Assembly (NCBI GenBank): GCA_029252685.1
Contig: JAQXAY010000148.1
Coordinates: 2,266-66,265, forward strand
Source of the DNA: Saprospiraceae bacterium
Lineage (GTDB): Bacteria; Bacteroidota; Bacteroidia; Chitinophagales; Saprospiraceae
DNA length: 64,000 nt
Direction: 5' to 3'
Shown here: positions 25,787-61,667 of the stretch, in pieces
Layout of the letters: the number at the start of each line of letters is the position of its first letter
Position numbering within the stretch: the stretch's first letter is position 1
The notes under the pieces: generated by a model
The model's database searches: none
What the model saw: only the letters and a program-made list of their open reading frames with translations
Told to the model about the DNA's origin: nothing
Position numbers and translations under genes: made by a program

Positions 25787-28111
25787 TTAACGAACGATCA
25801 ATAATTTCCCTGTTGTAGTTCTAGGTTTGTCAAAATTCTCATCTGAGCTTACAAAGATTAGGTAAACACCAGTCTCTGGTTTTCTTCCTTTAAGATCTCT
25901 GCCATCCCAGACCGCTTGTCCACCCAGGGCAATGGTCTCGTAGACTAATTTACCATCGACGGTTGTTATCTTTATTCTGCTATTTTCGGATACTCCTCGT
26001 ATGGCAATAGGACCATCATAGTCTGGCCTAACAGGGTTCGGAAATACTTCGACTTCACTGTGGAATTCTCCTCCATCTACTGCTTCGCCACGAATAATCA
26101 AGATGCCTTCACTGGTTCCTATATATGCTTCTCCATTTAGGGAGTCAAATTTTATGAGCTTTATACTGTTTGAAAAGAGAGGGCTATTATCAATGTCTAG
26201 TCTTAATACTTGGTTTTCGCCAGATTCTGATTGAACAAAAATTCCGTTATCGGTTCCGAACCATTTTCGATTAGCTCCATCTATTCCGATGCAGTTTATA
26301 TTTTCAGTTTCGAGTAGATAGGCGCCAATATTGTCTGTTTCTCCAATCCTAAGTGAACCCTGACAACCGGATTCTTCAAAAATATTTGATGCACAGTCAA
26401 AAACAACAGGACCTTCCTGTGTTCCTACCCAAACATCACCATCCTTATCAACAGAGATACAGTTTACTGAATTTGTAGGTAAATTACTGTTGTTGGTATT
26501 TATGATCCAGGATCTATCATCTGAGGTACTTAATGGATCTTCGCCAGAATCATAGACCAACACTCCATTACTGCTCCCTCCAATAACAAACCACTTGTAA
26601 CCATTTTGATCAATGGTCATAGAGAGTAACTGTTTACTTGGAAATAAAAAGTTTTGCCATTCACCACCAGCTGTCAAAACAGAAACAGGATTGTTAGCGC
26701 CATAATTAGAAACCCATAAGTTTAGGTCATCATCAAAGCCTAAATCTGCAATTCTTGTCCTTGTTGGATCCCCAGGAATGTTTCCAAGACTTGAATTAGC
26801 ATCATTGAATATGTTCATCTCGTCTGCTTGGCGATCAAAATGTACTAATCCATCTAAATATGATCCAAAATATATATCATTCGTTATGGGATGCACCTCG
26901 ACTGAACTTATGTCTGCCAATCCATCTAGATTATCATATCTATTGGAGAAATATTGTCCCCAAGTGCCATCTACATAGCCTAGTAGTCCACTAAAGTTGA
27001 ATAGATAATCATAGTTTACTCCATAGCCTCCTGGTGCAATCCATATTTCTTCTCCGTTGAGTTCAAGATCAAATACTCCCTTGTCCAATATATCATTTGA
27101 AAAAATGAATTTACAGGAATAGTTACCATCTGTATCGGGTTCAAGGTATCGAAGCGGTCTAAAGTTATCACTGAGCCAAATATTTCCAGCTGCATCAGCA
27201 ATAGCATTTATATTTTGACCGAAACAAGTTTCAGAACCCAACTTAATATCTCTAAAGTCGTCTGTGTCTGTTTGGAGATATAGTGGTGCTTGGCAGAATT
27301 GATCGACACATCCATATGCTACAAGCAGTTTGTCATAAGCACTATTGATATAAACAGGAAAAAAGTTATCGTCTTCTAACACTTTTTCAATTGTAACTTC
27401 GTCATAGCTATATACTGCCTTGTTGATTCCTAGGTAAAGCTTCCCTGCGTGGCTGTTAAGTGCATATGATTCATAGGCAGCAGGCAGTTCATCGTTATCG
27501 AGGAAGGTCCATGTATCTACGTTGTCTATGTTAGGATTGTCTCCAGGAGAAAAGAATATACCCTCATTCGTTGCAATGTAGATCTGATCATTAAAGACAC
27601 AAGCACTATATATATTTATACCTAACTTCCTTGCGGTAAACGAAAACTCTTCGTTCGCAATATCAAATCGTGTAAGCCCGAAATTGCCAGCAATCAAAAC
27701 CCCACCTGCTCCATCTAAGCTTACAGCATTTACAGCTTTTACACCTTGTGTGAAATTAAAGTTTTTGAGGTCAAGGTTAGCACGAATACCTTCTGGGCCA
27801 ATCATGTCAATTATAAGCGATTCATAAATAAGAACAAGGTTCTCAGTTTGTTCATCATAGATGCTATGTTGAATATTGATATCACTGAGGCCATCCACTC
27901 TACTCAATCTAGTTTTTGACTTATTGGACTTGTTTAGTATCATAAGTCCAATGTTTGACCCTATGAAAACATTTTCACTGTCTTGAGTAATTGATACACC
28001 AACATTATAGGGTACCATTGCTTTCCATTCACCGATTCTCAATTCTGACTCCTGTGCGAATATGGAAATAGAAATTAATAGTATTGGAAATATGTAAAAT
28101 AGTCGCTTCAT
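25787..28111 (-). CDS. porZ: PorZ-like T9SS component (double beta-propeller protein with C-terminal domain)
   Basis: 774 aa, similar in size to P. gingivalis PorZ. Has a signal peptide, two-component-regulator-propeller-type repeats throughout, and the tail VFPNPVRPDYDGPIAIRGV...GVYLIFV...GKLLIVR. Confidence 0.6.
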   Translation of the reverse strand: MKRLFYIFPILLISISIFAQESELRIGEWKAMVPYNVGVSITQDSENVFIGSNIGLMILNKSNKSKTRLSRVDGLSDINIQHSIYDEQTENLVLIYESLIIDMIGPEGIRANLDLKNFNFTQGVKAVNAVSLDGAGGVLIAGNFGLTRFDIANEEFSFTARKLGINIYSACVFNDQIYIATNEGIFFSPGDNPNIDNVDTWTFLDNDELPAAYESYALNSHAGKLYLGINKAVYSYDEVTIEKVLEDDNFFPVYINSAYDKLLVAYGCVDQFCQAPLYLQTDTDDFRDIKLGSETCFGQNINAIADAAGNIWLSDNFRPLRYLEPDTDGNYSCKFIFSNDILDKGVFDLELNGEEIWIAPGGYGVNYDYLFNFSGLLGYVDGTWGQYFSNRYDNLDGLADISSVEVHPITNDIYFGSYLDGLVHFDRQADEMNIFNDANSSLGNIPGDPTRTRIADLGFDDDLNLWVSNYGANNPVSVLTAGGEWQNFLFPSKQLLSMTIDQNGYKWFVIGGSSNGVLVYDSGEDPLSTSDDRSWIINTNNSNLPTNSVNCISVDKDGDVWVGTQEGPVVFDCASNIFEESGCQGSLRIGETDNIGAYLLETENINCIGIDGANRKWFGTDNGIFVQSESGENQVLRLDIDNSPLFSNSIKLIKFDSLNGEAYIGTSEGILIIRGEAVDGGEFHSEVEVFPNPVRPDYDGPIAIRGVSENSRIKITTVDGKLVYETIALGGQAVWDGRDLKGRKPETGVYLIFVSSDENFDKPRTTTGKLLIVR

Positions 28112-41263: not shown

Positions 41264-41737
41264 ATGAAGGCAATTAAAAGATTATTTTTTGGTGCTTTTT
41301 GTTTAATGCTTTGTTCCTGTGGTCCGAAAATTATTTTTGAAGAGACAGTAGGTTTTGAAAACGAAGTGTGGACTTATGGTGATTCTCTGAATTTTGAATT
41401 CTCCATACAGGATACCTCTAAGCAATACGATTTGATGGTGGATATCGGCCATAATGCTCGTTTTCCTTACCAGAATTTGTATAGCACTATATCCACTATA
41501 TATCCTGATGCCAAGCGCATGGATCAAGTCTTGTCCTTTGAAATGGCAGAAAAGACAGGTCGTTGGTATGGTAAATGCAAGGCCGAAACTTGCGAGCTTA
41601 CTATTCCATTGCAAACTTCTGTGCGATTTGACCAAGTAGGAGATTATGTAATAGGATTTGAACAGTTTAGTAGGAAGGATAGCCTTTGGGGCTTTAGGGA
41701 TTTTACCCTTAGACTGACAGAAAGCATAGTGAAATAA
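41264..41737 (+). CDS. gldH: Gliding motility lipoprotein GldH
   Basis: 157 aa with lipobox LCSC. The W.Y.D.L.F.F.I.D....YDL...I.H...FPYQNLY pattern matches my memory of GldH. It starts 1 nt after the dnaJ stop. Confidence 0.7.
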   Translation: MKAIKRLFFGAFCLMLCSCGPKIIFEETVGFENEVWTYGDSLNFEFSIQDTSKQYDLMVDIGHNARFPYQNLYSTISTIYPDAKRMDQVLSFEMAEKTGRWYGKCKAETCELTIPLQTSVRFDQVGDYVIGFEQFSRKDSLWGFRDFTLRLTESIVK

Positions 41738-41910: not shown

Positions 41911-44328
41911 ATGAAAAACTACACCTACTTTTTGCTGCTTTTTGGATTCATAATGATTCCTTTTTTTACTGCATCCGCACAGGAAGTGCGTGTGAAAATT
42001 AAATCGGAAGAAACACTTCATAAGGAACACAAGATTAATACCATACAGCCTATTAGTAAGTCTAATCCACTTTTTCCAATATTCCATGATATAGACTTAA
42101 GTTCAAGCAAGGATTTTGACTTGAGCCTTGTGGCCATAGAACAAGGTCAACCAAGTATTCAAGATAAGCTTGAGCTTGATGCCGAGATCGATAAGCTTAG
42201 GTCTAGTAAACTTAATACTAAATTCGATCCATTCAATCTTGTAGAATCAGACGCTGATGGAGGTATAGCCCTTGTCAACGGGTTTGAAGGCAACGCTTAT
42301 AATAGTTGGTATCCTTCTGATAATGCGATGGCAATTTCTAATGATGGATATATTGTTAGTCTTACAAATTCTTCCATTAGTTTTTATAATTCTGGCGGTG
42401 TAGTGTTTTTGAATAGTCAGTCCTTAGGGCAATTTTATAGTTTTCTTGATTTAGGATATTTCTTCTTTGACCCTAGGATTATCTATGACGTAGAGGCGGA
42501 CAGATTTATTATTGTATGTCTATATTCTAATTCACCACAATCAAACAGGGTTGTTGTTTCTGTCTCAGCATCTGGCAATCCATTGGACGGTTGGAACACA
42601 ACCACAATCCTCGCATCAGATATAGAGGCGGATGCCTGGTTTGACTATCCTAACGTTGGGATTTCTGCAGAGGATATTTTTATAAGTGGAAACATGTTCA
42701 CGAGTAGTGCTCAGTTTACACAATCTGTAGTAATTCAGTTGGATAAGACTGCACTTTATGCTGGTGAAGAAGCTTCTTGGGAGATATTTGAAAATATTTC
42801 AGATGGCATGGGAGTTGGATCTTTTACTATAAAGCCAATGTCTTCGGGAGTAGCGGAAAATTATAGTTCAGGTTTATATTTGATAAGTACAAGTTCCGCT
42901 GGAGGAAATTCATTCTTGTTGTATAGGATTACGGACCAGCTTTCGGCCGAGCAAGTATTGGAAGTGTTTTCTATACCTACAATGAGTTATGCTGCTCCAG
43001 TAGAGGCTTCTCAGAATGGATCAGATAAGAAATTATTTACTGGTGGAGTTCGACTTAGGGATGGGTTTTATGCCGACGGGAAACTACATTTTGTGCATGC
43101 CACTGATTTTGGAAACGGCTATGCAGGAATTCGATATACTAAGTTCGATCTCAATGACTATGAAAGTTACTCAATTGATTATGGACTACTAGGTTTTGAT
43201 TATGCTTATCCGTCTATCTCAGCCTTTGAAACAGAAAACAATCAATTTTCAGTCTTGATATCCTGTCTACGTTCTGGGCAATCTCTGTATCCAGAAATCA
43301 GAGCTTTTAAGATAGATAAGTATATGAATTCCACAAATTCAATTCTTATAAAAAGTGGTGAATCACCAATATCAATATCTAATAATTTGAATCAGCGGTG
43401 GGGTGATTATACATCTACTGTAATGCAATTTGATACCGATGAACCTACGGTTTGGGTTTTTGGATGCTATGGTAAAAATATGAAGTTTGGAAATTTTATT
43501 GGGGAGGTGAGTTTAGGAAATAATGGCAATGCTCCTCTGTCGGATTTTATTGCAAGCAATACATTTGGTGTAGGTCCTTTGTCGGTTAGTTTCTCGGATG
43601 AACCTTCATCTGCTGTTGAAAATAGATACTGGTCCTTTCCCAACGGAAATCCATCTTTTTCTACTGATCCCAATCCCGTCGTAGAGTATTTGAGCCCGGG
43701 GAATTATAATGTCACACTATCTGTATCAAATGCTTTTGGAACTCATCAGGTTACAAAATATGATTTTGTACAAGTTGGGGTTTTGCCAGAAGCTGATATT
43801 CAGGTAACAAGCCCAAGTGTTACAGTAGATGAAAATGTTATTTTTCAAGGTGTGAGTCTTTCCGAGGTTGACTATTGGGAATGGATTATTGAAGGTGCTG
43901 ATGAGCAATACCACAACATCCAAAACCCGGTCGTTGTATTTAAAGAACCGGGTATGTATTCAGTCGAATTGAATGTGTCAAATGCTTTTGGAGCGTCACA
44001 GGTTTTCAAAGAGGACTTTATTGCAGTTAGTACGCTGAGTAGTTTGAATAAAGTCTCAGACTTGGCAAGCTTGTCGGTCTATCCGAATCCTGCTGTACAT
44101 TCTTTTAGTGCCGATATGCAACTGAAGGAGCGTTTGGAGCTTACTATTGTGTTAGTGGATGCATCAGGTAAATTAGTTCGAAATTTTTTCTCGGGATTTC
44201 TTAAGCCTGGTGTCCAAAGACTTACTTTCAATACTGATGTATTATCGAAGGGAGTTTATTATCTTGTGATCAAAGAATATTCAGGAAAATTACTATCGAA
44301 TGAAAAAATCATTATTCAGGGTCCTTAG
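41911..44328 (+). CDS. T9SS-secreted protein: unknown ~540-aa N-terminal domain, two PKD domains, CTD
   Basis: 805 aa with a signal peptide and two PKD-like repeats (GPLSVSFSD...YNVTLSVSNAFG and the SVELNVSNAFG copy). The CTD is SVYPNPAVHSF...GVYYLVIKE. Confidence 0.8.
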   Translation: MKNYTYFLLLFGFIMIPFFTASAQEVRVKIKSEETLHKEHKINTIQPISKSNPLFPIFHDIDLSSSKDFDLSLVAIEQGQPSIQDKLELDAEIDKLRSSKLNTKFDPFNLVESDADGGIALVNGFEGNAYNSWYPSDNAMAISNDGYIVSLTNSSISFYNSGGVVFLNSQSLGQFYSFLDLGYFFFDPRIIYDVEADRFIIVCLYSNSPQSNRVVVSVSASGNPLDGWNTTTILASDIEADAWFDYPNVGISAEDIFISGNMFTSSAQFTQSVVIQLDKTALYAGEEASWEIFENISDGMGVGSFTIKPMSSGVAENYSSGLYLISTSSAGGNSFLLYRITDQLSAEQVLEVFSIPTMSYAAPVEASQNGSDKKLFTGGVRLRDGFYADGKLHFVHATDFGNGYAGIRYTKFDLNDYESYSIDYGLLGFDYAYPSISAFETENNQFSVLISCLRSGQSLYPEIRAFKIDKYMNSTNSILIKSGESPISISNNLNQRWGDYTSTVMQFDTDEPTVWVFGCYGKNMKFGNFIGEVSLGNNGNAPLSDFIASNTFGVGPLSVSFSDEPSSAVENRYWSFPNGNPSFSTDPNPVVEYLSPGNYNVTLSVSNAFGTHQVTKYDFVQVGVLPEADIQVTSPSVTVDENVIFQGVSLSEVDYWEWIIEGADEQYHNIQNPVVVFKEPGMYSVELNVSNAFGASQVFKEDFIAVSTLSSLNKVSDLASLSVYPNPAVHSFSADMQLKERLELTIVLVDASGKLVRNFFSGFLKPGVQRLTFNTDVLSKGVYYLVIKEYSGKLLSNEKIIIQGP

Positions 44329-48642: not shown

Positions 48643-49326
48643 TTAATTTATAATAGTTTGTTTGTCAGTGCTGTAGAATTCGTAGGCATTATGCAATAAA
48701 ATATTCGGTCCTTCTTGAATTGACTCACTTCTTTTTACAAAATAGTACGTCCATTTTCCTTCTGATAAATCTTGTTTTACAAGATCAACTTGGAAGAGTG
48801 AATCTTGTGGGCCGATTATACTAATGACTTTAGTCTCTCCTTTTTCATTGTTAAGAAGAATATTTATTTTTTCATTGATCTTTAGTTGTTCTTTAGAAAA
48901 ATCCAGCTCAAAACCATCTTCGAGGCTGACTTGCTCGTCAAGCGTGTAGCTTTTTATGCCAGACATCGTAATGGTATTCTTCAAATTCTGACCACTTAAG
49001 TCTTTGAATTCAAATTCCACTAAATTTCTAAATGACCTTTCCTGTTCAATTTGGTATCTGTGTAGTTTATCTGAGATCCATTTGCTGTTCATTTTGTCTT
49101 TTCCTTGATTAATACCATCGGACAATACAAAAGGAGTTTTATTTTTTGAGGTGTCCACAAGGAAAAGGTGCGCCTCTATTCGTTCGACACTTCCTTTTTC
49201 AAGGTATCTAACATAAAAATTTCCGCTAAGGACCTCTTGAGTATCAGTATCCTTCTTGTTACAAGACAAGAGAAAACCTAAAGTAAATAATGAAATTGCA
49301 ATTGAAATGTAAAAAGATGACCTCAT
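48643..49326 (-). CDS. Hypothetical lipoprotein
   Basis: 227 aa with signal/lipobox (GFLLSC). No recognisable family. Confidence 0.5.
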   Translation of the reverse strand: MRSSFYISIAISLFTLGFLLSCNKKDTDTQEVLSGNFYVRYLEKGSVERIEAHLFLVDTSKNKTPFVLSDGINQGKDKMNSKWISDKLHRYQIEQERSFRNLVEFEFKDLSGQNLKNTITMSGIKSYTLDEQVSLEDGFELDFSKEQLKINEKINILLNNEKGETKVISIIGPQDSLFQVDLVKQDLSEGKWTYYFVKRSESIQEGPNILLHNAYEFYSTDKQTIIN

Positions 49327-49742
49327 TAGAATCTATTTATTAGTATACGGGGATGTGATAAATTTGAGTAGCAAGGTAATAAATGGAAAAGGTATTTGTG
49401 CACTCTATTGGTTAATCTTCATTAAAATCCATCCGGTTTTGTGTTTTTTACTTTGTTTAAACCATTGTTAAATAGGTATGTGTGTTGCTTTTAATTTGTT
49501 TAGAAGCCTTGATTTTAGATGGATTATGTTTATTATTTTAACCATTAAGACCTATTTTGCAATTGGTTTATAGGAGTGTTGTCGAGATAATATATCAAAA
49601 AAGACATTATATCCGAAAGATTTTTTTGAGCATAACTTTCTTCCAAGACCTTAATATACTTTGTAAAGCGGAGGCATTTGGTTAATATTGTGTGAATAAA
49701 AAAACTCGAATTAGATTATTGTAACTAATTAAAAAAGACTGT

Positions 49743-52700
49743 ATGGTACGTTATTTACTCATAACCCTGTCTTTTCTTCTCCTAGGATCCTTTGGAGCTG
49801 CTGCCCAGGGTACCCTTCAGGGAAAGGTGACAGAGAATGAATCAGGGTTAGGCGCCATCGGCGCTACGGTATTAGTCAAAAGAGGCGGTGTCCAGATTAC
49901 TGGGGGCGTGACTGATTTTGATGGGAACTATTCTATTCCCAATCTTGATCCCGGAACTTATGATGTGGAGGTTTCCTATGTAGGTTTTGCATCATCAAGA
50001 ACAACAGGAGTAGTTCTTTATGTGAACAGAATTGTTAAACTTGATGTATCTCTTGTTCCGGATTCAGAAGTATTGGATCAATTCGTCGTAGTGGGCTACA
50101 AAGTACCACTGATCGAAGTTGATAATACAACTGGAGGTAAGACGGTAACAGCTGAAGAGATTGCAAATCTTCCTGGTAAATCCATTGGAAGTATTGTATC
50201 TACTGTTGCAGGTGTCGCATCTGTTGATGGTAATGTCAACGTAAAGGGATCTCGTTCCAATGCAACCGATTATTACGTGGATGGTATTCGCGTGAGTGGT
50301 TCATTACCTCCACAATCGGAGTATGAGCAGATTCAGGTATTGACGGGTGGTATTTCCGCTCAATACGGTGATGTAACAGGTGGTATCATCTCGATCATCA
50401 CAAAAGGACCTCAGAGTAATTATTCTGGTAGTGTGGATTTAGAGACAACTTCTCCTTTTGATAATTATAACTATAATCTTGCTGCTGCAAGTATAGCTGG
50501 TCCAATTATCAAAAAGAATGATAAATCTATACTTGGTTTCCGTATTTCGGGACAATATAGATATGAAGATGATAATAATCCTCCTCAAGGAGTTTATTAC
50601 AAAGCAACAGACGCAAAAATAGCTGAGATTGAGGATAATCCAGTTGATAATATTGGAGGTATTCTTCGTCCTACTGCAAATTCAATGAATGCGCAAGACG
50701 TCGAAGCATTGGATTACAATCCTAATTCAGAAATAGAGGATATGTTCTACACTGCAAAATTGGATTGGCAGGTTTCAAAGGGTATTGATGTTACCGCGTC
50801 AGGTTCATTCAGAAAGAACAAAAACAGATTCCTACCAGGAACAAATGATAATGGTAATAGTCGTTGGATTCTTTTTAACTCTCACAACAACCCATATTCT
50901 GATTTCCAGAATTACCGTGCTAATTTTAGATTGAGACACCGTCTTGGTCAGACTGATTATACATCGGCAGGGGAGGGAGATACGAAAAGTGCTGTTCAGA
51001 ATATTACTTACATCCTTCAGGGTGGTTTTGAGCGTTCTAACAGATTTAATTATGACTCAAGACATGAAGATAGATTCTTTGATTACGGATATGTTGGACA
51101 ATTTGAATATAGTTTTGATAATGCGCTAGGTCTTCCTTTTGATAGAGAAAATCCAGCGGACTATCCATTCTTCCTAGAGCATAGAGGTTTCTCTGAGACG
51201 CTTACAGGGTATACACCAGCTGGAATTAATCCAGTTTTGGAAAATTATAACGCAGATGTTCCAGAAGGATCTATTGAATCTGCATATTTGATCAGGAATG
51301 GTTTCCAGAGTAATACACTTACAGAAATCTTCAATGGCCTTCATACCAATGCAGGTGCTGTTTACAATAATTATACTAAAACAGAGAGTGATCGTATAAC
51401 TGCTCAAGCGAATGTATCTTTCGAGATTGTTCCAAGAAAAAATTCTGCAAACAGACATAACATCAAATTTGGTGCTATGTACGAGCAACGTACTTCAAGA
51501 AGATGGGATTTAGATCCTATAGCTCTTTGGCGAATTGCTGAACAACAAGTAAATCGTAACATCATAGGTGTAGATACATCGATGATCGTTGGAGATTCTC
51601 TCGTTGAACAGACAGGTGAGCTTATTCCTATTTACGGTAAAACAACTGTTGATTTACTGGGTAACTCATTTTATAAAGAGATTCGTGAGTCATTCGGAAT
51701 TCCATTAACTGATTTCGTAAATGTACATGGATTTAGTCCTGACCAATTGTCAATAGACATGTTCTCTTCCTCAGAGCTTACTACTGAGGATATCTTGAAT
51801 TATTATGGTTATTCTTATACAGGTGAGAAGAAGAACTCAACTTTTGATGACTTCTTCACAAATACTGATGAGAACGGTCTGAGAACATTCGATGTTCCAG
51901 CATTTACACCGAACTACTTTGCTTTCTATGTGGAGGATAAATTTAACATCGATGACATTTACTTTAGCTTTGGTCTTCGTATGGATCGTTTCGATGCAAA
52001 CACGAAAGTGGCTAAAGATTTGTATGTCTTAGAAGATGTTTATTCTGCTGCTGATTATCATGCACAATTTGGAGGTGAAGCTCCATCTACTGTAGGTGAT
52101 GATTCTAAGGTATATGTAACCAATATAGAGCAACCACAAGTTGTAGCATATAGAGATGGTGATGCATGGTATACATCAGGGGGTACTGAGAGTACAGGAC
52201 CTCAAATCTTCGGTGGTCAGACTGTACAGCCGATGTATGTTAATCCTGACGTATCGATCAACTCTCCTGAATTCGATCCGTCGACTTCATTTGTAGATTA
52301 CGTACCACAGGTGAATTTCTCACCTCGTCTTGCATTTTCATTTGCGATTTCAGATGTTGCAAACTTCTATGCACACTATGATGTGATGGTTCAGCGTCCA
52401 GCTTCAAATAGCGTATTTACTCCATTGGATTATTACCTATTCTACGAAGGAGGAACACTAAAGAACAATCCAAATCTTAGACCAGAGCGTACTATTGATT
52501 ACGAAATTGGTTTCCAACAGAAACTTAATGATCGTTCATCAATCAAACTTTCGGCTTATTACAAGGAGCTAAGAGATATGATCCAGTCAAGACAATTGAC
52601 TCAGGTTGCTATCCTTGGTCAATATACAACTTATGATAACCTTGACTTTGGTACTACCAAAGGTTTCACATTCTACTATGACCTTCGTCGTACGAAGAAT

Positions 52701-53357
52701 ATTCAAATGCAGTTATCATATACCCTTCAGTTTGCTGATGGTACTGGTTCAGATGCTAACTCAACTCGTGGTTTAGACTTTAGAGGAGTTCAGCGTTCAC
52801 TATATCCACTTAACTTTGATGAGCGTCACAGATTCGGTTTGAATCTAGACTACTCTTACGGAGAAGGAAAGAAATATAATGGTCCAGTATTATTCGGAAG
52901 AGACATCTTTGCTAATGCAGGTCTGAATGTTCAGATGAATGCAGTATCAGGTCGTCCGTATACGAAGAAACTTCAGCCAACTCAATTTGGTGGAGACTTT
53001 ACACTTGGATCTATTAATGGTGCAAGAAAACCTTGGACATTCCAATTGGATTCAAGATTGATGAAAAATTTCTCTATTGCAAGGGAAAATGGTTCAAGCC
53101 TGAACTTCCAGGTTTACCTAAGGGTATCAAATATCTTGAACAGAAGAAATGTACTAAATGTATTTACGGCTACAGGTGTGGCGGATGATGATGGTTATTT
53201 GGCATCTGCTAATGGTCAGTCTGCATTGACTGCAATTGGTAACGATCCAACACTATCTGAAACAAGTTATATTGCTGCATACAATTGGCGTATGTTGAAT
53301 CCTGACTTCTTTACACAGCCGAGAAGATTCTATTTAGGAACAGTTTTCTCATTCTAA
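49743..53357 (+). CDS. Oversized TonB-dependent-receptor-like outer-membrane barrel (CarboxypepD_reg-like domain, plug, very large barrel)
   Basis: 1204 aa with a signal peptide and an N-terminal Ig-like domain (GKVTE...GATVLV...TDFDGNYSIPNLDPGTYDVEVSYVGF). The plug region is VVVGY...GKTVTAEEI...VNVKGSRSNATDYYVDGIRV...LTGGISAQYGDVTGGIISIITK. A long amphipathic beta region ends in the beta-signal YLGTVFSF. Confidence 0.85.
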   Translation: MVRYLLITLSFLLLGSFGAAAQGTLQGKVTENESGLGAIGATVLVKRGGVQITGGVTDFDGNYSIPNLDPGTYDVEVSYVGFASSRTTGVVLYVNRIVKLDVSLVPDSEVLDQFVVVGYKVPLIEVDNTTGGKTVTAEEIANLPGKSIGSIVSTVAGVASVDGNVNVKGSRSNATDYYVDGIRVSGSLPPQSEYEQIQVLTGGISAQYGDVTGGIISIITKGPQSNYSGSVDLETTSPFDNYNYNLAAASIAGPIIKKNDKSILGFRISGQYRYEDDNNPPQGVYYKATDAKIAEIEDNPVDNIGGILRPTANSMNAQDVEALDYNPNSEIEDMFYTAKLDWQVSKGIDVTASGSFRKNKNRFLPGTNDNGNSRWILFNSHNNPYSDFQNYRANFRLRHRLGQTDYTSAGEGDTKSAVQNITYILQGGFERSNRFNYDSRHEDRFFDYGYVGQFEYSFDNALGLPFDRENPADYPFFLEHRGFSETLTGYTPAGINPVLENYNADVPEGSIESAYLIRNGFQSNTLTEIFNGLHTNAGAVYNNYTKTESDRITAQANVSFEIVPRKNSANRHNIKFGAMYEQRTSRRWDLDPIALWRIAEQQVNRNIIGVDTSMIVGDSLVEQTGELIPIYGKTTVDLLGNSFYKEIRESFGIPLTDFVNVHGFSPDQLSIDMFSSSELTTEDILNYYGYSYTGEKKNSTFDDFFTNTDENGLRTFDVPAFTPNYFAFYVEDKFNIDDIYFSFGLRMDRFDANTKVAKDLYVLEDVYSAADYHAQFGGEAPSTVGDDSKVYVTNIEQPQVVAYRDGDAWYTSGGTESTGPQIFGGQTVQPMYVNPDVSINSPEFDPSTSFVDYVPQVNFSPRLAFSFAISDVANFYAHYDVMVQRPASNSVFTPLDYYLFYEGGTLKNNPNLRPERTIDYEIGFQQKLNDRSSIKLSAYYKELRDMIQSRQLTQVAILGQYTTYDNLDFGTTKGFTFYYDLRRTKNIQMQLSYTLQFADGTGSDANSTRGLDFRGVQRSLYPLNFDERHRFGLNLDYSYGEGKKYNGPVLFGRDIFANAGLNVQMNAVSGRPYTKKLQPTQFGGDFTLGSINGARKPWTFQLDSRLMKNFSIARENGSSLNFQVYLRVSNILNRRNVLNVFTATGVADDDGYLASANGQSALTAIGNDPTLSETSYIAAYNWRMLNPDFFTQPRRFYLGTVFSF

Positions 53358-53376
53358 TTGACAAAATAAATTGAAA

Positions 53377-56300
53377 ATGATGAAACATAAATATTGGTTA
53401 TCAGCTCTCTTGATGTTCTCGTTCCTTGTTGGAATGCAGGCGCAGGAAGAATGTCTGAAGCCTAAAGCCCAAATTGATCAGGGGGTTAATCGTCTGACTC
53501 AGGGTAAAGTTAATAATGTAAGGGCTCGTCTAAGAACCGGTGGTGATAACTGGTGGGATGGCTCTGGTGATGGAAAATACGTAGTACCGGCTGTTGCTGC
53601 AGGTGAAATCGAGGTATCTTCGGTATTTGCAGGTGGTGTATGGCTAGGAGGATTTGATTCAGGTGGTAATCTAAAACTTGCTGCTCAAACTTACGGATCT
53701 TCTCAAGGTAATACGGATTTTTACAATGGTCCATTGAATGATTCAGATGGTACCACTGAAAAGGAAACATGTGAAGATTGGGATAGATTCTTCGAAGTAT
53801 ATGCTTCAGAGATTGATGATCATATTGCTCTTCTTGCAGAAGCTATAAATGGTGGAACTTACGAGCAAGATCAAATTCCTTTCGGTGTAAAATACTGGCC
53901 TGCAAAAGGTAATCAGTACTTCGCTTCATACTATGGTTTTGCGCTTCCTGACAATGAGCAGGGGCTTGCATACTTTTATGATGCAGATGCAGATGGTTCA
54001 TATGAACCTCTGAACGGTGACTATCCTGTAATCCGTGTAAGAGGTTGTGAAGAGCCTCAATATCCAGATCAGATGATCTACTGGATTTATAATGATAACG
54101 GTGGTATTCACTCAGAAACGCAAGGTGATGCTATTCAGATGGAAATTCAAGTTCAGTCTTTTGCTTATGGTACAAATGACCAGGTAAATGACATGACTTT
54201 CCAAGCTTATCGTTTAATTAACCGTGCAATTGATGAAATTGATTCTACATACTTTGCAATGTGGGCTGATATAGATCTAGGTTGTTATACGGATGATTAT
54301 ATTGGCTGTGATACAGTTCGTTCTCTTGGATATGCATATAATGCAGATGAAGAAGATGGTACTAATGGTATTACATGTCTGCAAGGTGTACCAACTTACG
54401 GTAATGAGGTTCCAATGATTGGGATTGACTACTTTAGAGGACCTTTAAAGCCTATTTTTGATGCCGAAGATAATATCATTGGTGAGGAAGAATTAGGAAT
54501 GTCTTCATTCGCTGTTTACAACAACGGTGGAGTTGGTGATCCTCCTGTAGGTACGACAGATCCATCTCAGGATTTTGAATACTATAACTACCTTTCTGGT
54601 TCATGGAGAGACGGAACCCCAATTCAGTTTGGTGGTGATGGATACCAAACTGGAGGTGAAGAGGTAGATTATGTATTTTTTGATGAACCAAACAATGGTG
54701 AAGGTTGGTCAATGTGTACAGAAACACTTCCTTCTGATTACGATAGACGTCAGCTTCAGGCTTCAGGTCCTTTTAGACTTCTTCCGGGTGCTGTTAACGA
54801 ACTAATTGTAGGTGTAGTTTGGGTACCAGACATGACTTACCCTTGTCCAGATCTTAACAGGTTCTTTAAAGCGGATGATTTTGCTCAAGGACTTTTTGAT
54901 AGTTGTTTCGATATTCTTGATGGTCCAGATGCACCGGATGTAGATCTTGTGGAGCTTGACAGAGAGTTGGTGATGATACTTACAAATGACAAATTGACTT
55001 CAAACAATGCATTTGAGGCATATACTGAGGATGATCCAACAGCTCCTGCTATTCCTGGTATTGATCCAGCATATAAGTTTGAAGGATACCTAGTATACCA
55101 AATTCCAAGTCCAAATGATGTAGCTGATCTTCAAGATCCTGAAAAAGCTCGTTTGATTTTGCAGATGGATGTAAAGAATGGAATCTCTACAATTTATAAT
55201 TGGAGTAGTGAATCTATTGCATATCCAGATGGAACTACGGATGAAGTTTGGTTCCCTACTGTACAGGTAGAAGGATCTAATAAAGGTATTGAGCATACAT
55301 TTAAAGTAACTAACGATGCATTTAAATCGGGTAATGATACACGTTTGATCAATCATACGAGGTATTACTACAAGGTTGTAGCATACGGATATAATAACTA
55401 CGAAGAATTTAATGAAGACCTTGGTGAAGGCCAACGTCGTCCATTCATCATTGGTCGTAGAGGTGGTTCTCCATTTACTGCAATTCCAAGACCAATTGTT
55501 GATCAGACGCTTAATTCAAATTATGGTGACGGTGCTATCGTTACACGTTTGGATGGTGTCGGTGTTGGATCTAACTTCCTTGATATCTCTGATGAGTCAA
55601 GAGATCAGATTCTAAATGGTGAATTCGATGGTTCAATTACGTACAAAGAAGGTGGCGGTCCAATCTCTGTTAAGATTTTCAATCCGCTAGAGGTAATAAA
55701 TGGATCTTATGAACTTAGGTTTAAGGATTCAGACCAAAATGATGACTCTTTAGATGAGGATGCAGTTTGGGAACTTGAAGACCTTGGAACTGGTGAAATC
55801 ATTGCTTCAGAAACTTCAATTGAGTTACTAAATGAACAAGTATTTGGTCAGTATGGATTCTCTATTGCTATAGAGAATGATGAGGATCTATTCAATTCAG
55901 CAAGCCCTGACGGAGCAGTTGGTTCAGAAGTTGTTTATTCTGATGTTACTGGTGCAGATTGGTTTGATGTAGTTAAAGATGAAGAAGATTTCGGAATTCA
56001 GGCTTCCTTTATTTCAAGTACGTTTGATTACGTAAATCCTGAAGAAGGATCTAACGTGTTTAATATTGATCCAAACAATACACTTGGTTCTATGGCGGAT
56101 GGTTTCGTGCCATTCCCTCTAGCAACTAATGATTATACGACTGATCCTACAAATCCAGCTGCTGGACCTGTTTTGACTCCAGGTTGGACTAAAGTAGGTG
56201 CAAGTACTTTCTTCAACAACAACTTTAACCTTCCTCAAATCATGGGTAACCTAAACAATATTGATATTGTTTTCACCTCTGATAAGAGTATGTGGTCAAG

Positions 56301-57381
56301 ATGTATCGTTGTAGAAACAGCAAACCCTGGAATGACATCAAACTTCCCATCTATTGAGAACCATGCACAGATGATGCTTAGAGGTTCAACATCTGTTGGT
56401 AAGTATGATAGTGATGAAGATGGAAAAGCAGATACTGATACTTCTGATGCACCAACTGGTAAAGGATGGTTCCCTGGTTATGCAATTAATGTTGAAACAG
56501 GAAAACGTGTAAACATCTTCTTCGGAGAGAACTCTTCATTCAGTCAGTCTCCGCTTAAAGAATTCTTCCCAGATGAAGATTCTAAAACGGATGATATGAT
56601 GTTTAATCCATCAGATGAGACATTACTTGAATTCCAAGGTGTTCAATTTGGTCAAGCAAACCTTTATTGTGGTGGGCAGCACTTCGTTTATGTAACTAAT
56701 ACAGAATATGATGGCTGTAACGCACTTTATGAAGCGGCTAAGAACTTGACCCCGAATAGTGCTTACACCTTCTATTTGGCATACATTAGAAATATAGTTT
56801 GGTCTGGATTCCCGATTCTTAAATCTGGGGCGCGTCTAGATCCTCTTGGATCTGGAGAGTCTGGCCTTATACCAAATGATGTAACTGTTAAGTTGCGTGT
56901 TACGAGTCCTTACGCTGTAGAGACTGGAACTGGTGTTCGTAATGGTAATCCAACTTACCAATTCGATATAGCAGGTAAAGCGTCAACGGACCTTACATCA
57001 GACGAGGTTGAGTCTGCGTTAGATATGATCAATGTAGTTCCTAATCCTTACTACGGATTCTCTAATTACGATTCAAATAACTTCAACAATACAATTAAGA
57101 TTACAAATCTTCCTGCAACATGTGTAGTATCTATATACTCACTAGATGGTAAATTTATCAAAAGATTTAACCGTGCGGAGAGATATACTACGCCTTCAGG
57201 AACGAACAGAGGACTTCAGTCTGCACAATATGCTCCAGACGTTGAATGGGATATGAAGAATAATCAGAATATTCCAGTAGCGGGTGGTGTTTACTTGATC
57301 CATGTGGAAGCGGAAGGTCTTGGTGAGCGTGTAATTAAATGGTTCGGTACAAACAGACAGTTTGATGCTACCGGATTATAA
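53377..57381 (+). CDS. Giant acidic secreted protein of unknown function with T9SS-type C-terminal domain
   Basis: 1334 aa from the ATG at 53377 (the track starts at TTG 53371), beginning 19 nt after the receptor stop. Signal peptide LLMFSFLVGMQAQ. No catalytic motif is recognised. The C-terminus VVPNPYYGFS...ITNLP..CVVSIYSLDGKFIKRF...WDMKN...PVAGGVYLIHVEAEG resembles a T9SS/FlgD-Ig-like sorting domain. Confidence 0.8.
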   Translation: MMKHKYWLSALLMFSFLVGMQAQEECLKPKAQIDQGVNRLTQGKVNNVRARLRTGGDNWWDGSGDGKYVVPAVAAGEIEVSSVFAGGVWLGGFDSGGNLKLAAQTYGSSQGNTDFYNGPLNDSDGTTEKETCEDWDRFFEVYASEIDDHIALLAEAINGGTYEQDQIPFGVKYWPAKGNQYFASYYGFALPDNEQGLAYFYDADADGSYEPLNGDYPVIRVRGCEEPQYPDQMIYWIYNDNGGIHSETQGDAIQMEIQVQSFAYGTNDQVNDMTFQAYRLINRAIDEIDSTYFAMWADIDLGCYTDDYIGCDTVRSLGYAYNADEEDGTNGITCLQGVPTYGNEVPMIGIDYFRGPLKPIFDAEDNIIGEEELGMSSFAVYNNGGVGDPPVGTTDPSQDFEYYNYLSGSWRDGTPIQFGGDGYQTGGEEVDYVFFDEPNNGEGWSMCTETLPSDYDRRQLQASGPFRLLPGAVNELIVGVVWVPDMTYPCPDLNRFFKADDFAQGLFDSCFDILDGPDAPDVDLVELDRELVMILTNDKLTSNNAFEAYTEDDPTAPAIPGIDPAYKFEGYLVYQIPSPNDVADLQDPEKARLILQMDVKNGISTIYNWSSESIAYPDGTTDEVWFPTVQVEGSNKGIEHTFKVTNDAFKSGNDTRLINHTRYYYKVVAYGYNNYEEFNEDLGEGQRRPFIIGRRGGSPFTAIPRPIVDQTLNSNYGDGAIVTRLDGVGVGSNFLDISDESRDQILNGEFDGSITYKEGGGPISVKIFNPLEVINGSYELRFKDSDQNDDSLDEDAVWELEDLGTGEIIASETSIELLNEQVFGQYGFSIAIENDEDLFNSASPDGAVGSEVVYSDVTGADWFDVVKDEEDFGIQASFISSTFDYVNPEEGSNVFNIDPNNTLGSMADGFVPFPLATNDYTTDPTNPAAGPVLTPGWTKVGASTFFNNNFNLPQIMGNLNNIDIVFTSDKSMWSRCIVVETANPGMTSNFPSIENHAQMMLRGSTSVGKYDSDEDGKADTDTSDAPTGKGWFPGYAINVETGKRVNIFFGENSSFSQSPLKEFFPDEDSKTDDMMFNPSDETLLEFQGVQFGQANLYCGGQHFVYVTNTEYDGCNALYEAAKNLTPNSAYTFYLAYIRNIVWSGFPILKSGARLDPLGSGESGLIPNDVTVKLRVTSPYAVETGTGVRNGNPTYQFDIAGKASTDLTSDEVESALDMINVVPNPYYGFSNYDSNNFNNTIKITNLPATCVVSIYSLDGKFIKRFNRAERYTTPSGTNRGLQSAQYAPDVEWDMKNNQNIPVAGGVYLIHVEAEGLGERVIKWFGTNRQFDATGL

Positions 57382-57390
57382 TAAAATTGT

Positions 57391-57408
57391 GGGGAGCTCA
57401 AGCTCCCC
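57391..57408 (+). promoter_or_regulatory. GC-rich intercistronic stem-loop without U-tract
   Basis: ggggagctcaagctcccc is a perfect palindrome (6-7 bp G/C stem). It lies 10 nt after the 1334-aa gene stop and 35 nt before the next ATG. It is followed by ccaacttt, so it is not a canonical terminator. Confidence 0.4.
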
Positions 57409-57442
57409 CCAACTTTGTTGAACATTTTGAATTAAAAAAGTT

Positions 57443-58492
57443 ATGAATAAAATAATAAACTATATAGTAGCCTTCTTTTTGGTTCTTGGTTTCATGCCTG
57501 ATGCTCAGGCAGGTAACCCGGATCGTCAGGGGGAGGCAGGTTTTGCCCAGTTACTATTGGTTCCATATGCGCAATCAGCTGGTTTGAGTGCAATGAACAC
57601 AGCTTTTGTATCTGGTGTGGAATCATTTGGTGTAAATCCTGCAGGTTTGGCTTCAGTTACAAACCTTGAGATAGGCGTTCATCAGGCTCAGTACCTAGTT
57701 GGAACGGATATCAAATTAAATGCCTTTGGTATGGTTACCAAGTTGAAGAATGGTGGTGCACTTGGTGTCTCATTGAATAATGTAGATATGGGTGAAATCG
57801 CAAGAACAACTTCGGATCAGCCAGGAGGTACTGGAAATACATTTTCTCCTTCAATTTTTTCTTTGAATATTGGCTATGCTAAATCATGGGATGAGAAAAT
57901 TTTTGTAGGAGTTAACTTCAAAGTAGCTTCTGAGCGCGTTGAGGATATGTCTCTTTCTACATTTGCAATTGATGCAGGTGTTCAGTACAAGTCCGGTGAA
58001 AATGATCGTTTTCGTTTTGGAGTTGCTTTGAGAAACATTGGAGCTCCAGCAGCTTTCGAAGGAGAGGGACTTATTTTTATCTCTACAGTACCATTCGAAG
58101 GAGGTACATTTACGCAGACTACAACTCAGCGTTCTTCAAGAGTAGAACTTCAGTCGGCTCTTAAGTTAGGAACATCTTATGATGTTATCACTGGTGTTAA
58201 TACACTTCGTGTACTTGCTAACTTTACGTCTAATGCCTTCTCCCGTGATCAGATCGGTGGAGGTATTGAGTATCACCTTAAGGATATATTTGTACTTCGT
58301 GGTGGATACCAATATGAATTGGATCAGATAGATTCTGAGTTGCCAATTTATACAGGTGTTTCTGGAGGTGCAACATTTAACTTTAAGTTAGGTAAAAGTG
58401 TAGATGCAGCCCGTGTAGGCTTAGGATATGCTTACCGAATGACAAGTAAGTTCAATGGTACACACAATGTGGGTGTAACATTGGAACTATAG
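57443..58492 (+). CDS. PorV/PorQ-family (FadL-like) outer-membrane beta-barrel protein
   Basis: 349 aa with a signal peptide. The N-terminal motif GEAGFAQLLLVPYAQSAGLSAMNTAFVSGVESFGVNPAGLA is characteristic of PorV/PorQ-type proteins as I remember them. The rest has an alternating beta-strand pattern. Confidence 0.7.
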   Translation: MNKIINYIVAFFLVLGFMPDAQAGNPDRQGEAGFAQLLLVPYAQSAGLSAMNTAFVSGVESFGVNPAGLASVTNLEIGVHQAQYLVGTDIKLNAFGMVTKLKNGGALGVSLNNVDMGEIARTTSDQPGGTGNTFSPSIFSLNIGYAKSWDEKIFVGVNFKVASERVEDMSLSTFAIDAGVQYKSGENDRFRFGVALRNIGAPAAFEGEGLIFISTVPFEGGTFTQTTTQRSSRVELQSALKLGTSYDVITGVNTLRVLANFTSNAFSRDQIGGGIEYHLKDIFVLRGGYQYELDQIDSELPIYTGVSGGATFNFKLGKSVDAARVGLGYAYRMTSKFNGTHNVGVTLEL

Positions 58493-58516
58493 AGTAGCTG
58501 ATACAGATAATAAAAG

Positions 58517-58547
58517 AGGCTGACTCATTGAGAGTCAGCCTTTTTTA
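58517..58547 (+). terminator. Strong intrinsic terminator closing the receptor / giant protein / PorV-like unit
   Basis: Perfect 10-bp stem aggctgactc/gagtcagcct with a 5-nt loop and a T6 run, 25 nt after the stop. Confidence 0.85.
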
Positions 58548-58618
58548 TTTTAATGAATTAGATTAAATAGAAATAAGATTAATTTGATAAAACCAAAGAA
58601 AAAAATTAAATTTGTTTA

Positions 58619-59683: not shown

Positions 59684-60721
59684 TTATCGGCTCGGTCTGT
59701 ATTTTGATCGTGCAAGAAACTCTTGAGCGTCATTAAGTTTTAATAAATCCTCAAAACTAGTTTCTGGGTTATTTCTCATGTAGGCATCTACCATTCTATA
59801 CCCAATGTAATTGGCTGTTCTTCCGGGTGCTTCTGCAGGCATTCCTGATGCATTAGGACTATGATCAACTAGTTTTCTGAAATCCTGCCAGAGGGTTGAA
59901 TATAAAAGTTCTTGATCAATCAAATGCGCATAAATGTTAGACTCATTAGCAGCTACCCAATCCATTTTTTCCTTGCTATATTGGTGGATAACAGTATCCG
60001 ACAGCTCTGGAAGTAATGCATCTAAAATGTAAAGTTCTTTGCCATTGTCGAGCATGTAATCGATGAGTTTACGATCTGCTTTTTCTGCATTCATATCATC
60101 AATAAGAGGATAGAGGGTGTTTCGTACAATATAGTCCTTGTTGTAATGTTGGCTCAAGTAATTTGAGAAGTTCGGATTGCCAGCATTTAAAAGTAAATAG
60201 GGGTAATCCGCACCTAAAAAGAAATCGAGACCGACTGCAAGTGAATTTTCAGAGTAGATGAAATTGGAAACAGTATATTCTGATACAAATGTCGTAATAT
60301 CAGGAACCTGTCTATCTGGAAAATAATACTTGAAATACTTAAATGCTTCTTCAAATGCATTTCCGGATAAGCCTTTGTATAATTCTTGACTTCGCTCATA
60401 CATAACAAGAACCATAGAATCCGATAAAAAACCATTGATTATATCTGTCGGACCTTCTGGAAATAAAACCGAGTCAAAGACAGGAAAAAGCTGACCAAAA
60501 TAGATATCGGAAAAAGCTGGATAATCCTGCATTAGTCGATCTAGTTCTGCAGCAGTATTATTTGTATCTATATTGAATAGGTCTTGTTCAAAGTGTTTCA
60601 CCTCTACTTCTACTGTAATACCTGTAAGATCTGGTTTGATAGGACCTTTATTACAAGCGTACAAGGAGAACACTATCATACTGAACAAGAATCCTCGGAA
60701 CACTAATTTTTGTTTTATCAT
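59684..60721 (-). CDS. gldB: Gliding motility lipoprotein GldB
   Basis: 345 aa with lipobox SLYAC. The N-terminal region (VEVKHFEQDLF...L..LMQDYPAF) and the overall length fit GldB as I remember it. Confidence 0.6.
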   Translation of the reverse strand: MIKQKLVFRGFLFSMIVFSLYACNKGPIKPDLTGITVEVEVKHFEQDLFNIDTNNTAAELDRLMQDYPAFSDIYFGQLFPVFDSVLFPEGPTDIINGFLSDSMVLVMYERSQELYKGLSGNAFEEAFKYFKYYFPDRQVPDITTFVSEYTVSNFIYSENSLAVGLDFFLGADYPYLLLNAGNPNFSNYLSQHYNKDYIVRNTLYPLIDDMNAEKADRKLIDYMLDNGKELYILDALLPELSDTVIHQYSKEKMDWVAANESNIYAHLIDQELLYSTLWQDFRKLVDHSPNASGMPAEAPGRTANYIGYRMVDAYMRNNPETSFEDLLKLNDAQEFLARSKYRPSR

Positions 60722-60902: not shown

Positions 60903-61667
60903 ATGAAAAAAAGTTGGCTGTTATTGCTTTTGATAAGCAGTATGTTTAGTGCAGTAACTAATGCACAGACAGAGACCCGTTTTGGAATTCAATTAGCACC
61001 TACCTTTTCATGGCTTACAACAGATTACGGTGATATTGGCTCCAATGGCAGTAATCTTGGGTTTGCAATGGCTATTAAGGCCGATATGTTCTTTGCCGAA
61101 AAGGCGGCATTTTCTTTTGGACTTGGACTTGGACTTAATCAAGGCGGAAGATTATTACATAATAATCCCGGAGATTATTTCTTCAATTCTGAGCTTTCAG
61201 AAAATATCCTTCACGCATTGCCAGAACTTTCAGATATACGATATAAGGTTAATTATATCCAAGTACCATTAAGCCTAAAAATTTTAACGGATGAAATCTT
61301 ACAGTTAAGGGATATGCGTTTCTCTGTTGATGCGCCTATTTTTACACTTGGCCTGAGGAATAAAGCATTCGCTGACATTACTGGTCTAAGTGGAGTGCAA
61401 GGATTTGAGGACAATTTTTATAAAGAGATCGTTTCGAAAGATGTTAATCCCTTGGACTTGAGCTGGGGTTTTGGAATCGGTATGGAGTATAATCTATCCG
61501 GAACATCTAGAGATGGGACATCTTTGCTTGTTGGACTTACTTATGCACAGTCGATTTTTGATATAACAAAGAATGACGGTTCTAGAATTGTCGACGGTTT
61601 GATCGAAGAGGAAAACTCATCGGCTACTCGACATAATATTAATATTGTTGTTGGAATGGCCTTTTAA
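60903..61667 (+). CDS. Outer-membrane beta-barrel protein (OMP_b-brl_2 / PorT-like porin family)
   Basis: 254 aa with a signal peptide (AVTNAQ), an alternating-strand pattern and a terminal VVGMAF. Confidence 0.55.
   Translation: MKKSWLLLLLISSMFSAVTNAQTETRFGIQLAPTFSWLTTDYGDIGSNGSNLGFAMAIKADMFFAEKAAFSFGLGLGLNQGGRLLHNNPGDYFFNSELSENILHALPELSDIRYKVNYIQVPLSLKILTDEILQLRDMRFSVDAPIFTLGLRNKAFADITGLSGVQGFEDNFYKEIVSKDVNPLDLSWGFGIGMEYNLSGTSRDGTSLLVGLTYAQSIFDITKNDGSRIVDGLIEEENSSATRHNINIVVGMAF

Follow-up and report, generated by a model that had tools for sequence, protein, structure and literature searches.

A stretch of 64,000 nt from contig JAQXAY010000148.1 of a Saprospiraceae bacterium assembly (GCA_029252685.1, positions 2,266 to 66,265 of the forward strand; henceforth called the window, with all positions counted from its first nucleotide) was analysed for three consecutive genes on the + strand: gene 1 (49743–53357; 1204 amino acids (aa)), which encodes a TonB-dependent transporter; gene 2 (53377–57381; 1334 aa counted from an ATG start), which encodes a secreted acidic multidomain protein of an unannotated family; and gene 3 (57443–58492; 349 aa), which encodes an outer-membrane barrel of the PorV/PorQ family. 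We tentatively read this trio as one outer-membrane module, in which the transporter may be combined with a surface partner that is exported by type IX secretion system (T9SS) machinery and tethered by a private PorV-like barrel. The domain identities, the folds of the gene 1 and gene 2 products, and the conserved gene order were established directly, and the parts of the module that go beyond them are graded individually below.

Conservation and layout of the trio

Linkage of the three genes was surveyed by tblastn across 79 Saprospiraceae-type loci from distinct species genomes. Gene 1 was located directly 5′ and gene 3 directly 3′ of gene 2, in the same orientation, in 79 of 79 loci, barring contig ends on the gene 1 side (L012, L074, and L078) or on the gene 3 side (L018 and L058), and the spacers within the trio were short throughout the related loci. 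Eleven of the 79 loci were without both the carB and the greA flanks, and the trio was still intact. The same order was also recovered in six loci of distant Bacteroidota metagenome-assembled genomes (MAGs; L080, L083, L084, L085, L087, and L094) at gene 2 identities of 36–40%, including L084, where the trio was kept though all flanks had changed. On a second contig with the same gene 2 homolog as L080 (L081), gene 2 is followed by a PorV-like gene and then by the contig end. An earlier note made from the window's letters alone (the sequence-only reading) had proposed the three genes as a unit, and in this neighbourhood survey (79 + 6 loci) their homologs proved to be syntenic in other genomes, even with differing flanks.

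Additional copies were found at or near several loci. At L085 (258–7969), two tandem gene 1-like genes (1228 and 1230 aa) precede genes 2 and 3, and the 3.79-Mb genome that carries this full trio also contains a near-identical orphan gene 2 (L086), i.e., a recent duplicate. A further orphan homolog (L082) is a gene 2 paralog with a canonical C-terminal ending. Short paralogs of the N-terminal module of gene 2 (approximately 610–830 aa, each with a C-terminal sorting domain (CTD)) form a tandem array of four at L093 (3056–10851) and directly flank the trio at L088 (122–2035) and L091 (9001–11490), which suggests that accessory surface proteins form a set open to expansion. No paralogs of genes 1–3 were detected elsewhere within the window. 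Among the flanking genes, greA-HIT on the 3′ side and a 2-hydroxyacid dehydrogenase gene on the 5′ side of the trio were also kept in several distant lineages; in one of these lineages, represented by L080 (14123–16648) and L081 (6380–8905), a further conserved but uncharacterised envelope gene follows greA-HIT right after the trio and encodes an outer-membrane protein of 841 aa with CarboxypepD_reg and DUF5686 domains. The window proteins themselves are about 97% identical to those of a MAG contig labelled “Sphingobacteriales bacterium” (L001), with further relatives in Saprospiraceae, Lewinellaceae, and Haliscomenobacter.

The positions of the three genes were re-derived, and co-direction, gene sizes, and spacers (19 nt between genes 1 and 2, 61 nt between genes 2 and 3) were as described in the sequence-only reading. 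For gene 2, an alternative TTG start exists at 53371, two codons 5′ of the ATG, and corresponds to the mechanical start of the open reading frame (ORF). The 416 nt preceding gene 1 (49327–49742) had been called the longest non-coding stretch of the window; this applies to internal stretches free of ORFs of 100 aa or more, but the stretch at the window edge (1–1148) is longer. Within these 416 nt, an element of the Bacteroidota promoter type, TTTG-N19-TAATATTG, was identified at 49660–49690 (+ strand), with its −7 box beginning 60 nt 5′ of the gene 1 ATG. The same motif recurs at equal distance from gene 1 in roughly 30 out of 67 related loci, and the element is a candidate promoter. It is embedded in approximately 190 nt before the ATG (49555–49742) that are about 95% identical to the corresponding segment of a related locus (L003), whereas the encoded proteins are just 79% identical, and that also hold a conserved leader of approximately 50 nt. 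A scan for the sigma-70 consensus yielded no enrichment (25 occurrences found vs. 30.8 expected) and was less informative than the Bacteroidota-type motif, and a search against Rfam returned no known RNA or riboswitch anywhere in the window, the 416-nt leader included. The same intergenic region is used by a divergent gene (48646–49326, − strand) for a protein of 227 aa without family, weak homologs of which (23–32% identity) are located at the equivalent position in about 20 related loci.

On the 3′ side, the trio is closed by an intrinsic terminator (58517–58551, + strand) with the sequence AGGCTGACTC-attga-GAGTCAGCCT followed by a T-run. The perfect 10-bp stem reported previously was borne out; its loop comprises 5 nt, and the minimum free energy (MFE) of the structure is −27.2 kcal/mol (z = −6.29). 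A promoter-like element was kept only 5′ of gene 1, with the terminator 3′ of gene 3, and the layout renders the single operon assumed in the sequence-only reading plausible. The transcript may be attenuated before gene 3, however, as the spacer between genes 2 and 3 (57382–57442; MFE −17.2 kcal/mol, z = −3.15) contains a GC-rich hairpin (57391–57408, + strand; GGGGAGC-tcaa-GCTCCCC) without a T-run after it. A strong GC-rich hairpin is present in almost every gene 2/gene 3 spacer of 59 related loci (−17 to −48 kcal/mol), the structure being kept and the sequences being unrelated. The hairpin is probably an attenuator or a stabiliser of mRNA 3′ ends within the operon that would adjust gene 3 relative to genes 1 and 2.

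Domains and folds of the three products

The gene 1 product is a bona fide TonB-dependent transporter, in which an immunoglobulin (Ig)-like domain is combined with a TonB box, plug, and barrel. A signal peptide (residues 1–21) is followed by an Ig-like N-terminal extension (CarboxypepD_reg, residues 24–104, E-value 5e-14) and a plug (PF07715, residues 133–214, E-value 2e-8), so that both domains named in the sequence-only reading were recovered by Pfam, and the plug consensus was kept in 61 homologs. Between the Ig domain and the plug, a TonB-box-like segment, LDQFVVVGYK, was located (residues 111–120, 50073–50102), for which the 61 homologs share the family consensus LDEVVVTxYK. The barrel gave weak partial matches to generic TonB-dependent receptor models of NCBIfam, and the C-terminal residue is Phe. 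The AlphaFold model, built on the alignment of these homologs (mean predicted local distance difference test score (pLDDT) 81, predicted template modelling score (pTM) 0.78), was aligned by Foldseek over the whole barrel and plug with PirA, PhuR, PfeA, FhuA, and BtuB (E-values 1e-26 to 1e-20, template modelling score (TM-score) of 0.6–0.76 relative to the target), classical siderophore-type transporters being the best matches. In public databases, gene 1 homologs are named “TonB-dependent receptor” or “carboxypeptidase regulatory-like domain-containing protein.”

The sequence-only reading had further treated gene 1 as a receptor of the kind that is normally paired with a SusD-like lipoprotein, and its barrel as unusually large. 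Neither description was upheld. No match at an E-value of 0.01 or better was obtained against the SusC/RagA models TIGR04056 and TIGR04057 of NCBIfam and the downstream gene is not SusD-like, by which assignment to the SusC/RagA type was ruled out; since gene 1 falls outside this type, a missing SusD is no anomaly. The barrel exceeds SusC-like proteins just modestly in size, and the additional length is due to three long connections (88, 104, and 65 residues). Conservation in these extracellular loops is on a par with that in the strands (0.66–0.69 vs. 0.72), which is unusual for surface loops and would fit a conserved ligand or partner.

For gene 2, neither the protein nor 26 aligned homologs matched any Pfam family, and NCBIfam yielded just a weak C-terminal match; searching the PDB sequences with the gene 2 profile returned nothing. 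The family nevertheless is very large and has neither a Pfam or NCBIfam model nor a name. More than 2100 full-length matches (approximately 1320–1350 aa) were obtained in the first search and more than 7700 matches when searching from a distant member; 6647 clusters at 50% identity were retrieved with E-values of 1e-3 or below, 1740 of these at 1e-30 or below, and a collection with one genome per species contained at least 588 confirmed matches. Identity amounts to 50% over 1330 aa, and more than 160 positions are invariant in 61 sequences. As noted previously, the protein is very acidic (pI 4.10; 205 acidic vs. 82 basic residues) and carries a signal peptide, here of the Sec type. It contains 13 cysteines, the majority of them conserved, and a thrombospondin-type-3-like (TSP3-like) motif, DSDEDGKADTD, at residue 1011. 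Judging from composition and this motif, the mature protein is probably extracellular, disulfide-bonded, and calcium-binding.

The gene 2 product can be divided into an N-module (residues approximately 40–520), middle modules, a variable region (approximately 790–960), a C-module, which contains the TSP3-like motif, and the CTD. Short forms of the family (approximately 580–830 aa) consist of the N-module (approximately 40–520, or extending to approximately 710) and the CTD, and long forms have extra domains, e.g., BNR/Ycf48-like, inserted near residue 800. The AlphaFold model of residues 25–1214 (pLDDT 82) is mostly beta structure. Foldseek returned weak matches (E-value of about 1e-4, TM-score 0.1–0.2) to the non-catalytic beta-supersandwich of enzymes of glycoside hydrolase (GH) families GH94, GH116, GH15-like, and GH65, and to arrays of FN3 domains. 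As the supersandwich alone was matched, with no (alpha/alpha)6 domain, identification as a glycoside hydrolase, phosphorylase, or lyase was rejected. A PorU/C25 peptidase was likewise rejected, with no match to PF01364 or NF033707 outside the CTD and no caspase-like domain in the model, as was PorZ, with no match to PF21544, which the true PorZ of the window does match, and no propeller fold match. Both PorU (6za2) and PorZ (5m11) were contained in the structure libraries and were not matched by gene 2 outside the CTD. The previous statement that gene 2 has no recognisable catalytic family and does not resemble C25 peptidases thus agrees with Pfam, NCBIfam, PDB-profile, and fold searches. The suggestion that it might stand in for a SusD-type lipoprotein found no support, the model being mostly beta in contrast to the helical SusD fold.

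The T9SS-type CTD of gene 2 comprises residues 1218–1334 (57028–57378, + strand), including an extra tail. The sequence-only reading had recognised this domain; it is clear at the level of the family but remained sub-threshold in the window protein, which matched the PorZ CTD at an E-value of 3e-3 and PF18962 at 0.077. Gene 2 homologs gave E-values of 1e-5 to 9e-10 on the PorZ model's CTD segment and down to 4e-7 on that of the PorU model, both better than the generic T9SS model (TIGR04183, 19–23 bits at a cutoff of 23). A gene 2 paralog with a canonical ending exceeded the TIGR04183 cutoff of 23 at 35 bits, and some homologs are named as type A sorting-domain proteins by NCBI. When searched against PDB, the CTD profile found PorZ and PorU alone, at sub-threshold E-values of 0.7–0.8. 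Trio-type gene 2 proteins differ from paralogs with canonical endings, which lack the special tail, by approximately 12 residues added past the last canonical strand (KWFG). These tails follow xxRxFDxSGL or xMRPxDLDxF, in most cases with an aromatic residue or Leu at the end; in the window, the tail is FGTNRQFDATGL (residues 1323–1334, 57343–57378, + strand). A strict pattern detected the tail in 97 or more of 130 full-length representatives; about 20 representatives end canonically.

Gene 3 matched the PorV/PorQ family model NF033709 over its full length (residues 34–348) at 128.5 bits (cutoff 90), so the earlier assignment to this family holds. It stayed under all equivalog cutoffs, i.e., at 75 of 220 bits for PorQ (NF033711), 59.6 of 250 for PorV (NF033710), and 38 of 325 for PorV2 (NF052325). 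Seven orthologs from trio loci of different lineages behaved in the same way, scoring 110–156 bits on NF033709 and 55–82 bits on the PorV and PorQ models. With the equivalog cutoffs missed this widely in all seven orthologs as well, gene 3 was rejected as the lineage's own PorV, PorQ, or PorV2; by these profile scores, it belongs to a distinct third subfamily of PorV/PorQ barrels in all trio loci tested. The sole match among PDB sequences was Flavobacterium johnsoniae PorV (6h3i_F, E-value 1.5e-6), and trace similarity to PorP/SprF was seen in two of the orthologs (E-values 2e-4 to 8e-4).

Proposed mechanism and competing explanations

In the proposed module, the gene 1 product would act as a TonB-energised, plugged barrel transporter. 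The gene 2 product, with a body that appears to combine a carbohydrate-enzyme-like beta-supersandwich with Ig/FN3-like domains, would cross the outer membrane via the T9SS by means of its CTD; the PorZ, GldH, GldB, and ordinary T9SS cargo encoded in the window fit such export. It would then not be released but, as with PorZ and PorU, would retain the CTD, which together with the 12-residue tail would bind it non-covalently to its dedicated barrel, the gene 3 product. Tethered next to or over the transporter as a capture or lid component, it would catch a substrate that gene 1 imports.

The steps of this mechanism differ in strength. Among T9SS substrates, PorZ and PorU retain their CTD, and PorQ and PorV, respectively, hold them on the cell surface; since the gene 2 CTDs resemble those of PorZ and PorU, a tethered gene 2 protein with retained CTD is supported, not proven; we consider CTD retention and anchoring to gene 3 probable. 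That gene 1 is functionally coupled to genes 2 and 3 appears rather likely. That the imported substrate is glycan-like or otherwise widely available is a possibility that we would not yet favour. More speculative is the generalisation that such trios represent an unrecognised, widespread class of TonB-dependent transporters whose capture subunit is not a lipoprotein but a CTD-keeping T9SS protein on a private PorV-like barrel.

Several observations weigh against the module. The housekeeping surroundings, without a regulator, TonB/ExbBD genes, a carbohydrate-active enzyme (CAZyme), or a peptidase adjoining the trio, are unusual for nutrient uptake. The CTD of the window gene 2 lies under every curated cutoff, and the fold matches of the gene 2 body reach TM-scores of just 0.1–0.2. 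Gene 2 homologs without partners occur (L082 and the recent duplicate L086), and a transcript of genes 1 and 2 may stop at the conserved hairpin ahead of gene 3. Finally, as greA, HIT, and the 2-hydroxyacid dehydrogenase gene stay syntenic as well, gene order alone overstates functional linkage.

Of the competing explanations, the one that survives best, yet which we regard as unlikely, is that genes 2 and 3 form an attachment-complex-like pair, the third besides PorU-PorV and PorZ-PorQ, for surface or outer-membrane biogenesis (e.g., handling of a surface polymer or T9SS cargo), with gene 1 being a co-expressed housekeeping barrel instead of a nutrient importer. Such a role would agree with gene 2 family CTDs that are nearest to PorZ and PorU, with the about equal distance of gene 3 from PorV and PorQ, with the single-copy occurrence of the trio in a core neighbourhood (carB, greA, gldB, gldH, PorZ, mreBCD, and dnaN) at every locus with enough flank, and with gene 2 being, for a surface protein, very highly conserved in sequence. 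The gene 2 body, however, has neither PorZ-like propellers nor a C25 fold, and a canonical PorZ is already encoded in the window. The intact TonB box and plug of gene 1 argue for gated transport, and the short N-module paralogs in tandem arrays look like ordinary cargo.

Less probable still is that the three genes are mere neighbours, with gene 2 being ordinary cargo (an adhesin or binding protein) with a cleaved CTD, gene 3 a general component of PorV/PorQ type, and gene 1 independent of both. The synteny of the unrelated greA, HIT, and 2-hydroxyacid dehydrogenase genes across lineages, the orphan gene 2 homologs, and the hairpin between genes 2 and 3 are what would be expected in this case. 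The trio, however, persists where all flanks change, L084 among these loci, and an extra gene 1 copy (L085) as well as short gene 2 paralogs (L088 and L091) accrete at the locus. In addition, the wide failure of gene 3 on the PorV and PorQ equivalog models in all lineages and the absence of the trio-type tail from canonically ending gene 2 paralogs speak against this explanation.

An outward-working gene 1 is improbable. It would function as a TonB-dependent exporter similar to Oar of Myxococcus that releases a protein or helps in its assembly, with gene 2 or its short paralogs as possible candidates, and would be in line with the lack of an import-type partner or regulator nearby. Oar (Myxococcus xanthus, PopC secretion) shares with gene 1 the architecture of a CarboxypepD_reg extension, a plug, and a 22-strand barrel (PMC6434023). 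This combination of extension, plug, and barrel is, however, the commonest transporter architecture in Bacteroidota and hence not diagnostic (PMC6434023), and gene 2 carries its own putative T9SS export signal.

Very improbable, finally, is that genes 2 and 3 are a divergent porU-porV operon (sortase and shuttle) of the lineage, for although porU and porV are typically adjacent, the sizes are similar (approximately 1150–1300 aa and 350–400 aa), and CTDs of gene 2 homologs match the PorU CTD segment, gene 2 matches neither Peptidase_C25 nor NF033707 outside the CTD, its mostly beta model lacks an alpha/beta caspase-like domain and did not find PorU (6za2) in the fold search, and gene 3 reaches just 59.6 bits on the PorV model with its cutoff of 250.

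Related systems and genomic surroundings

Each part of the trio (TonB-dependent transporter, T9SS CTD protein, PorV/PorQ barrel) is of a known kind. New with respect to the searched literature are their combination, the separate PorV/PorQ subfamily, the specialised CTD tail, and the large unannotated gene 2 family. The closest likeness for genes 2 and 3 is provided by PorZ-PorQ and PorU-PorV of Porphyromonas gingivalis, which consist of a large T9SS-exported protein and a 14-strand barrel of the PorV/PorQ family. The trio differs from both in that the gene 2 body is without propellers or a C25 domain, gene 3 fails both equivalog models, and a TonB-dependent transporter as well as an extra tail after the CTD are added. 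SusC/SusD-type systems (RagAB, BtuB-BtuG) resemble the trio in that a TonB-dependent barrel, with a similar Ig-like extension and TonB box, is encoded beside a surface-exposed partner. Here, in contrast, gene 1 is outside SusC/RagA, gene 2 is neither a lipoprotein nor of the helical SusD fold, and the partner would be delivered by the T9SS and held by a third protein. T9SS cargo with a type B CTD (e.g., SprB-SprF in Flavobacterium johnsoniae) has its own adjacent barrel of the PorP/SprF family instead of a general carrier; the concept is the same as that proposed for the trio, where the barrel belongs to the PorV/PorQ family and the CTD, at the level of the family, is type A/PorZ-like rather than type B.

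The sequence-only reading had mentioned possible similar trios elsewhere in the Fibrobacterota–Chlorobiota–Bacteroidota (FCB) group. For the alginate utilisation locus of Rhodothermus marinus, a TonB-dependent receptor, a T9SS type A sorting protein, and a PorV/PorQ family protein are drawn (PMC9530828, Fig. 2), i.e., three annotations identical to those of the trio, likewise ordered and within a polysaccharide utilisation locus, and the paper assigns no function to them (PMC9530828). The trios mentioned thus have a counterpart; its likeness to genes 1–3 is one of annotation, and the R. marinus proteins differ in size, with a middle protein of approximately 726 aa and a receptor of approximately 934 aa (PMC9530828). 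Literature searches on PorV2/PorU2, PorV-like proteins with TonB, PorV/PorQ family proteins, and Rhodothermus T9SS/SusD topics yielded no account of such a trio beyond one figure legend. A link to the new subunits of the Bacteroidota β-barrel assembly machinery (BAM; FadL-like BamG and surface lipoproteins) was considered and discarded, as those papers show no correspondence with the trio.

Surface-partnered TonB-dependent transporters and the T9SS are two hallmarks of Bacteroidota that are currently treated separately. If the proposed module is real, the trio would link the two physically, with the T9SS supplying permanent subunits for import machines, and would add a third pair of a CTD protein and a PorV-like barrel besides PorU-PorV and PorZ-PorQ. 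It would also explain why trios of a TonB receptor, a T9SS protein, and a PorV-like protein occur in Bacteroidota and in utilisation loci of Rhodothermus. In communities of wastewater and of marine particles, Saprospiraceae are abundant, for which reason a conserved surface machine of this kind likely matters for their physiology.

The window as a whole is a core-genome region with polA, lpxD, mnmG, dnaN, mreBC, PBP2, grpE-dnaJ, carB, greA, nadC, and pyrD. The canonical PorZ (25790–28111, − strand; 774 aa; PorZ_N_b_propeller, E-value 5e-21) is encoded approximately 22 kb 5′ of the trio, so that a normal component of T9SS attachment exists in this organism besides the gene 2–gene 3 pair. The gliding/T9SS lipoprotein genes gldH (41264–41734, + strand) and gldB (59687–60721, − strand) are also present. 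Two ordinary T9SS type A cargo proteins without any other recognisable domain are encoded on the + strand at 21923–24532 (870 aa) and at 41911–44325 (805 aa). Between gldB and nadC, a small outer-membrane barrel of the OMP_b-brl_2 family is encoded (60903–61664, + strand; 254 aa).

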